Made by a program: the position numbers and the translations under genes. Shown in pieces: positions 3,259 to 24,053 of a stretch of DNA of 32,000 bases (position 1 is its first letter; every line of letters starts with the position of its first letter). Below the pieces are notes generated by a model that did not search any database, was not told where the DNA came from, and was given only the letters and a program-made list of their open reading frames with translations. The stretch spans positions 82,443-114,442 of the forward strand of contig MKUQ01000022.1 in NCBI GenBank assembly GCA_001898645.1. The letters run 5' to 3'. Source of the DNA: Burkholderiales bacterium 70-64. Lineage in GTDB: Bacteria > Pseudomonadota > Gammaproteobacteria > Burkholderiales > Burkholderiaceae_E.

Positions 3259-4257
3259 ATGACCACGATGAACCGCCAGATCCTGCTCGCCAGCCGCCCC
3301 GAGGGCGGCGTCACCCCGGAGAACTTCCGCCTCGTGGAGACGCCGATCCCGGCGGTGGGCGCCGGCGAAGTGCTGGTGCGCAACCATTACCTGTCGCTCG
3401 ATCCGTACATGCGCGGGCGCATGGACGACGCCAAGTCGTATGCGGCCCCTCAGCCGCTCGGCGAGGTGATGATCGGGGGCACCGCGGGCGAAGTGATCGA
3501 GAGCGCCAACCCGAAGTTCGCCGTCGGCGACAAGGTGATCGGCATGCTCGGCTGGCAGCTCTACGGCAAGTCCGACGGCGCCTGGCTGCGCAAGGTCGAC
3601 ACGACGCGCGTGCCGCTCTCGGCATACCTGGGGGTCGTCGGCATGCCCGGAGTCACCGCCTGGTACGGCCTGAACCGGATCATCGCCCCGAAGGCGGGCG
3701 AGACGGTGGTGGTGTCGGCAGCCAGCGGCGCGGTGGGCTCGGTGGTGGGGCAGCTGGCCAGGCGGCTCGGCTGCCGTGCGGTCGGCGTGGCCGGGGGGCC
3801 CGAGAAGTGCCGCATCGTCACCCATGAGTACGGCTTCGATGCCTGCGTGGACTACAAGGCCGGCCGGCTGTACGAGGACCTGAAGGCGGCCACGCCGAAC
3901 GGCATCGACGGCTGCTTCGAGAACGTCGGCGGCGAGGTCTTCGATGCCGTGCTGCGCCGGATGAACGCGTTCGGACGCATCGCGGTGTGCGGGCTGATCG
4001 CGGGCTACGACGGCCGCCCGATCCCCTTGCACAATTTCGCCTCGGTGCTGGTGAACCGGCTGCGGGTGGAGGGCTTCATCGTCACGGAGCACATGGACGC
4101 ATGGCCCGAGGCCCAGCGCGAGCTGGGCGCGCGGGTGGCCGAGGGTGCGCTGAAGTACCGCGAGACGGTTGCCAAGGGGCTCGAGGCCGCACCCGAGGCC
4201 TTCATCGGGCTGCTCAGGGGGCACAACGTGGGCAAGCAGCTGGTCAAGCTGATCTGA
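3259..4257 (+). CDS. NADP-dependent oxidoreductase, medium-chain reductase family (YncB/CurA/leukotriene B4 12-hydroxydehydrogenase-like)
   Basis: 332 aa. LASRPEG.PTPENFRL...LSLDPYMRGRM and the AASGAVGS nucleotide-binding motif. Confidence 0.85.
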   Translation: MTTMNRQILLASRPEGGVTPENFRLVETPIPAVGAGEVLVRNHYLSLDPYMRGRMDDAKSYAAPQPLGEVMIGGTAGEVIESANPKFAVGDKVIGMLGWQLYGKSDGAWLRKVDTTRVPLSAYLGVVGMPGVTAWYGLNRIIAPKAGETVVVSAASGAVGSVVGQLARRLGCRAVGVAGGPEKCRIVTHEYGFDACVDYKAGRLYEDLKAATPNGIDGCFENVGGEVFDAVLRRMNAFGRIAVCGLIAGYDGRPIPLHNFASVLVNRLRVEGFIVTEHMDAWPEAQRELGARVAEGALKYRETVAKGLEAAPEAFIGLLRGHNVGKQLVKLI

Positions 4258-4322
4258 CCCGGGACTGCGCTTCGGCGCCCGGCGGCAGGGCCGGCGAGCG
4301 AACGCAGCGGGAGATTTGCACG

Positions 4323-15802: not shown

Positions 15803-16057
15803 TCAGCGATCTGGCTCGCTGATGATCGAGCTGCCGCGCGGTGGTGCGCCATGGGGTATCCCCATTTCGCGCAAGCTGCGCACAGCAGCTTCATGCTGGA
15901 GCTGCAGGAGCTCGGGGACCCACCAGGGCATTTTTCGGCGGCCGGTCAGCCAGTCGCGCACGGTACGAGGATGGCGTCGCAGGCGCCGGGCGATGATTTC
16001 GATCGGCACGCCGTTGCAGTAGGCCGCAGCCTGCTCGGGGTTGCCGCAATTGCGCAT
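15803..16057 (-). CDS. small HTH protein, distant paralog of the two dif-proximal genes at 16144 and 23074
   Basis: 84 aa with strong GC3 coding signal. It shares the core A(R/K)xL(R/H)xxPRTVRxWL...P...LL with those genes. Its only usable ATG (16055-16057) is the CAT inside the GCGCATAA XerC arm of the dif site. No SD seen. Confidence 0.5.
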   Translation of the reverse strand: MRNCGNPEQAAAYCNGVPIEIIARRLRRHPRTVRDWLTGRRKMPWWVPELLQLQHEAAVRSLREMGIPHGAPPRGSSIISEPDR

Positions 16058-16076
16058 AATGTGTGTTATGTCAAAT
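16049..16076 (+). other. dif: dif-like XerC/XerD recombination site A: ATTGCGCATAA-TGTGTG-TTATGTCAAAT
   Basis: Matches E. coli dif GGTGCGCATAA-TGTATA-TTATGTTAAAT at 23/28 positions by eye (XerC arm 9/11, centre 4/6, XerD arm 10/11). Confidence 0.8.
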
Positions 16077-16103
16077 CAAGCGATCTCCAGAACCCTCAAC
16101 CGC

Positions 16104-16135
16104 GGCCGATGGTATCACCATCGGCCTTTCTTTTT
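16104..16135 (+). terminator. rho-independent terminator: 10-bp perfect stem GGCCGATGGT/ACCATCGGCC, 3-nt loop, TTTCTTTTT tail
   Basis: Read directly. It lies 28 nt after dif site A and ends 8 nt before the ATG at 16144. Confidence 0.7.
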
Positions 16136-16143
16136 GCCCGGGC

Positions 16144-16590
16144 ATGATCGGACCACCACGCAACGTCCAGATGCTCTTTCGACGCCTCATCGACAACGTA
16201 GGCGGCCCCAGAACCGCCGCCAAGATCCTGCACGTCACAGCCCGCACCGTAGGCCGATGGATCGCCGACCAAGCGCCGTACCAAGCCGCAGCGCTGCTAT
16301 GGTGGACAAGCCCAATCGGACGCGAGTCGATCGGCATTGACGACCGGAACCTGATCACCACCCTGCGCCGACTCACCGACTCGCTCGACGCCGAGCTTGC
16401 CACCGAGCGAGAACGATGCGCCAACCTCGAAGCAGCGCTCGACGCCGCCACCGGACGCATCGCAGCCAACGACGGGCACGCCTATGGGCGCGGAGCCATC
16501 AACATCGGTTCGACGTTGCCAAGAACAGGATCTCGCGCCGACGCGAGAACCATGCAACAAGCGGCAGCGCCGGATCGAGCAGCCCGTTAG
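16144..16590 (+). CDS. dif-proximal HTH protein, paralog 1 (MIGPPR... family)
   Basis: About 65 of 110 residues are identical to the 23074-23415 product in my ungapped hand alignment. HTH-like GGPRTAAKILHVTARTVGRWI followed by a coiled-coil-like tail. The frame is also open back to a GTG at 16063 inside the dif site. The C-terminal 38 aa overlap convergent rep and may be read-through. Confidence 0.6.
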   Translation: MIGPPRNVQMLFRRLIDNVGGPRTAAKILHVTARTVGRWIADQAPYQAAALLWWTSPIGRESIGIDDRNLITTLRRLTDSLDAELATERERCANLEAALDAATGRIAANDGHAYGRGAINIGSTLPRTGSRADARTMQQAAAPDRAAR

Positions 16591-23481: not shown

Positions 23482-23715
23482 GTGCGCGTCGAAGTCCAGA
23501 AGTGGGGAAACAGCGCCGCCGTGCGTGTCCCTGCTCCGGCGCTGAAAGATGCCGGCATGCAGGTTGGTCAAAGTCTCGAGTTGCGAGTCGAAGGAGGCAG
23601 GCTGGTCCTGGAACCGGCAACCGAAAGCCTCGAAGACCTGTTGGCGAAGATGACGCCGGAGAACCGCCATGGCTTGGCTCTGGAAGGGTCGTCCGTAGGG
23701 GCTGAAGCTTGGTGA
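23482..23715 (+). CDS. mazE: MazE/AbrB-type antitoxin
   Basis: VEVQKWGNSAAVRVPAPAL... SpoVT/AbrB swapped-hairpin motif. GTG start 7 nt after AGGAGA. The stop overlaps the toxin start. Confidence 0.8.
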   Translation: MRVEVQKWGNSAAVRVPAPALKDAGMQVGQSLELRVEGGRLVLEPATESLEDLLAKMTPENRHGLALEGSSVGAEAW

Positions 23716-24053
23716 CGCGAGCTTATGTCCCCGAGCGAGGCGATGTCGTCTGGCTGGACTTCACGCCGCAGGCGGGCCACGAGCAAGCGGGCCGTCGCCC
23801 TGCCCTCGTGCTTTCGCCGGCGGCTTACAACGGGAAGAGCGGCTTGATGCTCTGCTGCCCGCTCACCAACCAGGTAAAGGACTATCCATTCGAAGTGCCG
23901 GTCACGCCTTCCACCGGCAAGGTCAGCGGAGTTGCGCTGGCTGATCAGGTGCGATGTCTCGATTGGCACTCTCGTAATGCCTCGAAGTTCGCGTCGGTGA
24001 CGACGCAGTGTGCTCTGGATGTGAGTGCGAAAGTGAAGCTGCTCCTGCCCTGA
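23709..24053 (+). CDS. mazF: MazF/PemK-family endoribonuclease toxin
   Basis: YVPERGDVVWLDFTPQAGHEQAGRRPALVLSP...CPLTNQVKDYPFEV is a near-textbook MazF/ChpB motif set. The start is TTG 23709 or GTG 23712 (GTGA overlap). Confidence 0.85.
   Translation: MVTRAYVPERGDVVWLDFTPQAGHEQAGRRPALVLSPAAYNGKSGLMLCCPLTNQVKDYPFEVPVTPSTGKVSGVALADQVRCLDWHSRNASKFASVTTQCALDVSAKVKLLLP

Follow-up and report, generated by a model that had tools for sequence, protein, structure and literature searches.

Small helix-turn-helix genes beside dif-like sites in a Burkholderiales bacterium: probable end genes of Xer-dependent elements, one of them a candidate attP-acting factor of a filamentous prophage

A stretch of 32,000 nucleotides from Burkholderiales bacterium 70-64 (contig MKUQ01000022.1, positions 82,443 to 114,442 of the forward strand; "the window" below means this whole stretch) carries two dif-like sites, each with a XerC arm, a central region and a XerD arm, and three small open reading frames (ORFs) encoding helix-turn-helix (HTH) proteins. 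Two of these proteins, HTH148 and HTH113, are named here after their lengths in amino acids (aa). The features of the locus that concern these genes are the following (positions are those of the window).

15803-16057, minus strand: 84-aa HTH ORF, a putative relic, its ATG supplied by the XerC arm
16049-16076, plus strand: site A, attL, ATTGCGCATAA TGTGTG TTATGTCAAAT (host XerC arm, host central region, phage XerD arm)
16073-16085, unstranded: right half of an inverted repeat, AAATCAAGCGATC
16104-16136, plus strand: terminator-like hairpin between attL and the HTH148 ATG (10-bp stem with 7 G-C pairs at 16104-16126, then TTTCTTTTT)
16144-16590, plus strand: HTH148, 148 aa, attP-adjacent end gene of an intact inovirus
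22712-22993, plus strand: 93-aa Cro/CI/YdaS-like HTH gene, the other prophage end gene, pointing toward attR
23006-23018, unstranded: left half of the inverted repeat, GATCGCTTGATTT
23015-23042, plus strand: site B, attR, ATTTCGATAGC TGTATG TTATGTAAAAT (phage XerC arm, phage central region, host XerD arm)
23018-23045, plus strand: promoter-like match TCGATA-16 nt-AATAAT, sigma-70-like, a consensus match only
23074-23415, plus strand: HTH113, 113 aa, chromosomal paralogue of HTH148, beside dif in phage-free genomes too
23482-24053, plus strand: mazE-mazF toxin-antitoxin pair downstream of HTH113, where the G+C content is below that of the host

All three HTH ORFs were found where the original prediction, made from the letters of the window, had placed them, and the ~59% identity that it had obtained by hand alignment for the plus-strand pair corresponds to 58% over 113 ungapped residues (E 2e-44). 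Its observation that each HTH gene is the one nearest a site and points outward from it also holds for all three, and this adjacency is far beyond chance and is seen again in relatives. Sites A and B resemble published Burkholderiales dif sites, such as that of Bordetella (AATTCGCATAATGTATATTATGTAAAGT; PMC2731167), and the XerC arm of site B mismatches the host arm at 6 of 11 positions. A shift by one base makes this phage arm (23015-23025, ATTTCGATAGC) similar to the XerC arm of the GTCGATAA type in Burkholderia dif, a reading that would imply a 7-nt central region, as reported for VGJphi attP. The G+C content drops from ~0.72 to 0.61-0.69 across 15-24 kb of the window, and an Rfam scan of the window returned no known RNA family.

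Between attL (16049-16076) and attR (23015-23042) lies a complete filamentous prophage of 6,966 bp. Within ~7 kb it encodes the set of functions that identifies it as an Inoviridae prophage, namely a rolling-circle Rep, a single-stranded DNA (ssDNA)-binding protein, coat B, a pIII-like protein, pVI and Zot/pI. Its remaining annotated genes are listed below.

16499-17401, minus strand: rolling-circle replication initiator, rep (PF23343, E 4.5e-15; phrog_3419, E 1.5e-64)
18222-18659, plus strand: 145-aa putative regulator (weak matches to RepB-RCR_reg and phrog_536)
18649-19710, minus strand: Zot/pI assembly ATPase (Pfam/PHROGs)
19707-20000, minus strand: pVI-like minor coat protein (DUF2523)
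20095-21432, minus strand: pIII-like adsorption protein with a TspB-like C-terminus
21806-21997, minus strand: major coat protein, Inovirus coat B (PF05356, E 9e-14)
22335-22634, minus strand: ssDNA-binding protein (phrog_2866, E 6e-23)

Pfam and PHROGs scans revealed no recombinase gene among the genes of the prophage, and domain scans no DUF3653 protein encoded anywhere in it. Lacking a recombinase of its own, flanked by hybrid dif-like sites and matched by an empty site with a single dif, the prophage is an integrative mobile element that exploits Xer (IMEX). Its end genes follow the order repressor-like gene, attP, HTH gene, on the strand opposite to the structural genes. Neither a DNA match to the prophage nor a protein match to HTH148 was present in 50,697 GenBank phage records. 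At its C-terminus, the pIII-like protein has a match to the TspB family of Neisseria (PF05616, E 1e-6), a feature also seen in filamentous prophages of Neisseria. Over window positions 16000-23000 the plus-strand GC skew is -0.10 to -0.19 and the AT skew is positive, which fits an ssDNA phage with nearly all genes on one strand; the prophage alone stands out in the skew, which shows no clear switch within the 32 kb that would prove a replication terminus.

The empty site is known from metagenome contigs of the same organism, which include lysogens (L001, L013 and L015) and phage-free representatives (L014, L017, L019, L020 and L022). The phage-free contigs carry a single dif, ATTGCGCATAA TGTGTG TTATGTAAAAT, with the 84-aa gene and HTH113 lying 50 bp apart around it. 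An empty-dif contig (L014) and a phage-junction contig (L008) were both recovered from Joint Genome Institute (JGI) sample 3300024991, so the prophage is polymorphic and probably still active in that population. From these alleles, attP is reconstructed as ATTTCGATAGC TGTATG TTATGTCAAAT, and attL (site A) would be the junction that can still act as dif in the lysogen. The two central regions differ by one base (TGTGTG at 16060-16065, TGTATG at 23026-23031), and in both hybrids this difference travels with the XerC arm, which places the exchange point on the XerD side. The hybrid pattern would fit an exchange on the XerD side, or else a complete exchange of both strands in one of its two outcomes, and it appears to argue against integration of the CTXphi type (XerC exchange alone, then replication), for which the opposite pattern would be expected.

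A perfect inverted repeat of 13 bp encloses the reconstructed attP and reaches 10 bp past each Xer arm; its halves are joined only in attP and are parted into attR and attL by integration. These halves are candidate sites for a dimeric accessory protein, or may form a hairpin in RNA or ssDNA; half-sites GATCGCTTG at attP are candidate HTH148 targets. A similar extension of the inverted repeat is found at the attP of L031, a PM2-like phage with a double jelly-roll (DJR) capsid. The promoter-like match at attR combines the XerC arm of the phage with the XerD arm of the host and its flank, and is absent from the empty dif (L014); the promoter search found none for HTH148 and none in the empty dif.

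On the host side of attR, HTH113 and the mazEF pair are also present in the phage-free genomes. Comparison of HTH113 with its homologue in L011 gave a ratio of nonsynonymous to synonymous substitution rates (dN/dS) of 0.25 at a dS of 0.34, that is, purifying selection, and the gene is therefore not decaying. Together with mazEF, HTH113 forms the left end of an older element, and mazEF is probably cargo of that element, whose far end is no longer detectable; no convincing third dif-like site closing either the HTH113-mazEF relic or the 84-aa relic was seen in the window.

A search of 1.84 billion proteins gave 87 representatives (E <= 0.001) of the rare family to which HTH148 and HTH113 belong. 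This family is described by no model in Pfam, NCBIfam or PHROGs, generic HTH models, including the YdaS and P22_Cro models of Pfam, matching only below threshold. Its members share an MxxPP(R/K) start, the HTH itself (RTVxRWL), the motif AP..A..LLWxxSPxGR, a long helix with heptad-like spacing and (A/S)AN(D/E)P. The AlphaFold model of HTH148 has a predicted local distance difference test (pLDDT) score >93 for residues 1-100 and contains four short helices besides a long helix of 47 residues, which follows the Cro-like HTH; the conserved core spans residues 1-113, and the non-conserved tail overlaps the 3' end of rep. The best structural match among predicted viral structures was an uncharacterised Corticoviridae protein (E 2e-4, template modelling (TM) score 0.67), while the Protein Data Bank yielded weak matches to Cro-like HTH domains only, and Foldseek comparisons with Xfaso1, N15 and P22 Cro had probabilities of 0.7-0.9 but E ~1. 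An excisionase-type recombination directionality factor (HTH_17, TIGR01764) was considered and rejected, HTH_17 matching below threshold in 14 of 51 members and TIGR01764 matching P0110 at E 0.049, although a position ahead of a DUF4224-integrase pair, an excisionase-like placement, is present in L023-L026.

Members of this family lie beside a dif-like site and point outward from it at eight loci (site A, site B, L011, L027/L028 and L036-L039), which span one inovirus and PM2-like phages with a P2 capsid. The site of L011 is identical to site A. The PM2-like prophage of L027/L028 (P2 capsid) has ATTGCGCATAA TGTGCA TTATGTCAAGT 135 nt 5' of the family gene, and those of L036 and L039, in Curvibacter and Rhodoferax metagenome-assembled genomes (MAGs), share the site A(C)T(T/A)AACATAA TATACA TCGT(A/G)TCAA(T/A)T. 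L037 and L038 are free-phage forms with a degenerate attP XerC arm and an upstream CI-like gene weakly similar to DUF3693. A perfect 14-nt direct repeat, CGATTTTGTCAGTG, occurs in L037 at 4158-4171 and 4278-4291, 120 nt apart around the PM2-like attP core, and L038 has an imperfect version of it; these are possible arm-type sites. By position, HTH148 takes the place of an Xaf-type gene, adjoining the dif-like attP of an integrase-less element, and the same arrangement is seen in L027, L036-L039 and L031-L034. Other relatives belong to integrase-type elements with the order Phage_CRI rep, 102-aa gene, family gene, DUF4224 gene and tyrosine integrase, hosted by Simplicispira, Rhodoferax and Giesbergeria. 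These elements of ~6 kb (L023 4729-10725, L024, L025 and L026), without a recognised Zot or capsid gene, may be satellites or integrative rolling-circle plasmids.

The original prediction had treated all three HTH proteins as related. This stands for the plus-strand pair and for an HTH core shared by all three, whereas the 84-aa protein, judged by its alignments, belongs to another family: its similarity to the two plus-strand proteins is confined to the HTH core (pairwise E 8e-4 and 0.5), and a profile-profile comparison of the two families reached 90.6% probability over 41 columns. The structure model of the 84-aa family is confident for the HTH core but not for the C-terminal part, and Foldseek returned generic XRE matches. 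Full-length relatives (P0006-P0008) have 115-126 aa and start with MRYPNxRYGNP; the copy in the window has lost 5-6 N-terminal codons, and ~45 C-terminal residues are missing in every reading frame. In L011 the 84-aa-type gene is frameshifted and ~100 bp separate it from dif. Because of the missing ends and the state of the L011 copy, the 84-aa ORF appears to be a relic cut at both ends, once the end gene of an older dif-integrating PM2-like element, and its dif-supplied ATG incidental. This codon had been described as the only ATG of the ORF, formed by the CAT of the XerC arm. The CAT is indeed present at 16055-16057 and gives the only ATG upstream of the HTH, but further in-frame ATGs occur at M43 and M65, with a GTG at codon 17. 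The protein is annotated at the NCBI from a Burkholderiales MAG (GCA_017307875.1).

Relatives of the 84-aa protein occur in PM2-like DJR phages (L031-L034), adjoining the XerC arm of an attP that is TLC-like and has a degenerate XerD arm (ACTTCGCATAA TTTATA TTATTCGAGTC), with a CI-like gene on the opposite side. In these betaproteobacterial phages the TLCphi-like attP lies inside a 10-bp extended palindrome (L031 7875-7920, L034 1-30), and L034 has at ~75-125, ahead of the homologous slot gene, a hairpin followed by T8 that is similar to the terminator-like one before HTH148. L031 holds its capsid gene twice, which suggests a concatemer or a circular assembly. The geometry of the two families is complementary: the HTH148/HTH113 family is found on the XerD-arm side of attP, the XerC arm being degenerate, and the 84-aa family on the XerC-arm side, the XerD arm being degenerate. 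Thus, each adjoins the well-conserved arm of its own attP in every dif-type case.

On balance, it is rather probable that the window holds an IMEX array at the Burkholderiales dif, in which the HTH genes are the attP-adjacent end genes of Xer-dependent elements and HTH148 is likely an attP-acting factor. Integration would join the good phage arm to the complementary host arm and, since the good arm adjoins the HTH gene, a working dif would be rebuilt directly upstream of that gene. Successive insertions would leave dif bracketed by outward-pointing HTH genes, and such repeated insertion would account both for the arrangement of the empty site and for the succession of site B and HTH113-mazEF. 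HTH148 itself would bind DNA as a dimer, combining a Cro-type HTH with a long coiled coil, and is predicted most likely to bind at or beside attP, whose core the 13-bp inverted repeat brackets. It would assist or direct a tyrosine recombinase, which here would be the host XerCD and in the largest branch of the family the phage integrase, and it may also regulate the lysogeny operon. An accessory role of HTH148 in Xer recombination is treated as plausible. That family members also occur beside integrases suggests that they serve tyrosine recombinases in general, as accessory or directionality factors, or else act by plain transcriptional control.

How recombination could affect the expression of these genes depends on where their translation starts. 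The original prediction had observed that the plus-strand frames open into the sites, and both are indeed in frame without a stop from GTG 16063 and ATG 23029 (central-region positions 4-6). From this it had concluded that the reading frames begin inside the site. Translation from such starts, with Xer exchange swapping 5' coding ends by design, would draw on the fact that site A, site B and L011 are all stop-free and in frame to the conserved ATG (joint chance ~0.01) and that the 84-aa ORF does start at the CAT of the XerC arm. These three open cases are close relatives, and their continuity, unlike the adjacency to dif, does not lie far beyond chance and is not persuasive; at five of the eight dif-type loci the frame is interrupted by a stop before it reaches the conserved start from the site. 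The putative extensions into the site (15, 27 and 52 codons) are not conserved, and the one at site A contains the terminator-like hairpin. In contrast, 10 of 11 diverse homologues begin with the methionine of MxxPPR, and its spacing to the HTH is conserved: of 116 family members, 94 have a conserved tryptophan at residue 39-44, a position that marks the conserved methionine as the true start. Homologues of the 84-aa protein start 90-125 nt from the site, and the frameshifted L011 gene lies ~100 bp from dif. Starts inside the sites are therefore very improbable, and the real ones are probably ATG 16144 for HTH148 and ATG 23074 for HTH113. The related claim that strand exchange swaps everything upstream of, or within, the 5' ends of the genes keeps its first half, what lies upstream of both paralogues being swapped, and loses its second, as the frames do not begin in the site. 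In the circular phage the 93-aa gene lies upstream of HTH148; integration parts the two, and HTH113 comes to follow the 93-aa gene instead. Together with the promoter-like match present only at attR, this rearrangement could swap the expression of the two paralogues. It is thus a reasonable hypothesis that recombination rewires their expression through transcription and not through start codons.

Two further accounts of HTH148 have to be set against a role at attP. In one of these, HTH148 and HTH113 are ordinary Cro/P15-type regulators of lysogeny or early operons, and their adjacency to attP reflects conserved module order only. The Cro-like HTH fold, the sub-threshold YdaS and P22_Cro matches, the absence of the DUF3653 core and the presence of the family in integrase-type elements all agree with it, as do the description of PM2 P15 (PMC1950889) and P16 as transcriptional repressors and the naming of P15/XafT as a transcriptional regulator (PMC12715192). 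However, both attP-adjacent genes tested in Vibrio stimulate Xer recombination: XafT activates XerD and helps synapsis (PMC6744903, PMC9226527), and XafV (ORF136) raises the integration of VGJ attP 10,000-fold, xafT and xafV lying directly alongside attP (bioRxiv 10.64898/2026.06.12.731946). Furthermore, one attP arm is degenerate and the crossover lies on the XerD side, features that accompany the need for an activator in TLCphi, and the inverted repeat brackets the recombination core and not a recognisable promoter. A purely regulatory function is therefore possible, if rather unlikely. In the other account, HTH148 is a packaging or assembly factor that binds a hairpin packaging signal and takes no part in integration, like the packaging-signal binder PSB15 in the corresponding slot of phiLf; two strong hairpins just upstream of HTH148 would suit this function. 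However, HTH148 shows no similarity to PSB15 (hhalign probability 0.4%) and has neither the WAGFXF motif nor a basic membrane-binding helix or basic tail, and its family is common to double-stranded DNA icosahedral phages and a chromosomal copy, neither of which is associated with filamentous assembly. There is accordingly little chance that packaging is its function.

Several observations weigh against HTH148 as an attP-acting factor. The DUF3653 core (a W-G-F hairpin), thought to carry the XerD-activating function of XafT, is missing from its family. PF12375 (DUF3653, gathering threshold 22.4 bits) matched none of the three window proteins at E <= 1 and none of 51 members at E <= 0.01, the controls PSB15, PM2 P15 and XafV scoring 35, 21.6 and 20.3 bits; NF040522, the VC1465/XafT model with a cutoff of 70 bits, matched no window protein at E <= 0.1, and its sole match among relatives of the 84-aa family was P0007, with 13.8 bits. 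The original prediction, which had been unable to place these proteins in the XafT/DUF3653 family, was right in this respect, and membership was rejected by the Pfam, NCBIfam and PHROGs scans alike. The reported dispensability of PSB15 for integration (bioRxiv 10.1101/2024.03.19.585677) and the repressor function attributed to PM2 P15 point the same way. HTH148 has no detected promoter or Shine-Dalgarno sequence, and the strong terminator-like hairpin directly upstream of it leaves too little space for a recognisable promoter. The circular attP junction was found in none of three exact-pattern scans of metagenome and viral collections, scans that also missed a control pattern contained in the JGI data and are thus uninformative. 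Finally, the largest branch of the family (60 of ~160 collected sequences) resides in integrase-carrying elements, no dif-like site was found in those inspected (L023-L026), and none was detectable in the DJR/PM2-like contig L029; the survey covered ~13 genomic contexts, sampled non-randomly. The original prediction had called for a survey of whether homologs are dif-adjacent and had held that homologs scattered without dif linkage would tell against it: eight loci display the linkage, and the largest branch departs from it, so that this objection applies in part.

With these points considered together, HTH148 as an attP-acting end gene is the reading retained here, and a more far-reaching version of it can be offered only tentatively. 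HTH148 and HTH113 might represent a new class of tyrosine-recombinase accessory proteins lacking DUF3653, which would let XerCD use an attP with a degenerate XerC arm in Burkholderiales inoviruses and PM2-like phages, a mirror image of TLCphi, through XerD-side exchange and binding to the attP inverted repeats; relatives would serve integrases, and HTH113 would be a domesticated modulator of entry into and exit from dif. Xer activation factors are represented by two experimental cases only, XafT and XafV, both from Vibrio and both with DUF3653-like segments. What is new here is a betaproteobacterial phage with the same module and a different, unannotated protein family in the activator slot, an attP with the opposite arm degenerate, natural lysogen and non-lysogen alleles of one organism, and a chromosomal paralogue fixed beside dif. 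If HTH148 directs Xer recombination, DUF3653 is not required for that task and searches for IMEX accessory factors should widen. The arm-and-gene geometry offers a simple rule by which IMEX arrays can be read and the junction that stays a working dif can be predicted. Should HTH148 be no more than a regulator, the locus would be an ordinary IMEX array, albeit one resolved cleanly. On its sequence, the locus is a cleanly resolved IMEX array with an unannotated protein family in the Xer-activator slot, the module itself being known.

The module of a repressor-like gene, attP and a small HTH gene has been established in four systems, including VGJphi, where orf154 (HTH_3 and DUF3693) is followed by attP and orf136 (= XafV), phiLf, with ORF10 (DUF3693), attP and PSB15, and PM2, with p16, attP and p15; RstR/P16, attP and XafT/P15 have been described as a terminal gene pair (PMC12715192). 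The 93-aa prophage gene is the counterpart of RstR, P16, orf154 and ORF10. The suggestion that the HTH genes of the window are positional counterparts of XafT is borne out by this shared layout and by the dif adjacency of their relatives, whereas XafT is not, as had been supposed, the only known IMEX-encoded Xer factor, XafV having been reported in 2026.

PSB15 (ORF9 of the Xanthomonas phage phiLf) occupies the same slot, after attP and an XRE-type gene, in a dif-integrating inovirus. It differs in being a DUF3653 protein without HTH that binds the packaging signal and the membrane and is dispensable for integration, and it shares no detectable similarity with the HTH148 family. XafT (VC1465 of the Vibrio cholerae satellite TLCphi) and HTH148 are both small HTH proteins with a dimerisation element, which in HTH148 is predicted, and both are encoded beside a dif-like attP with one degenerate arm in an element without integrase. 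TLCphi uses the host XerCD, and the prophage described here likewise lacks its own integrase and has its crossover on the XerD side, as expected for an XerD-first exchange. However, XafT has a DUF3653 domain and the HTH148 family does not, failing both NF040522 and PF12375; the degenerate arm is that of XerD in TLCphi and that of XerC in this prophage, the host is betaproteobacterial, and the HTH148 family is also found beside integrases.

XafV of VGJphi and HTH148 are encoded in the same inovirus module, on the strand opposite to the structural genes. Their weak similarity is limited to the HTH (hhalign probability 33%, E 4.6e-4, against a single-sequence target). XafV matches DUF3653 weakly (20.3 bits) and lacks a long coiled coil, unlike HTH148 with its long helix, and its partner ORF154 has DUF3693, which the 93-aa partner lacks; XafV has been shown experimentally to stimulate XerC-driven integration, a function for which HTH148 is a candidate only. 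The best remote match of the HTH148 family is PM2 P15 (hhalign probability 71%, E 3.7e-5, also a single-sequence target), covering the HTH, the following motif and the coiled coil, although the HTH148 family lacks the 22-residue segment that forms the DUF3653 core of P15. The mazEF cargo beside HTH113 resembles the hypervariable regions beside p15 and xafT, where cargo is typical in Vibrio (PMC12715192). The P16-attP-P15 module of dif-type DJR phages has been described only in Vibrio and Pseudoalteromonas (PMC12715192), and both the P15-type module and the HTH148 family are common to inoviruses and PM2-like phages, in which they provide a prophage end gene.

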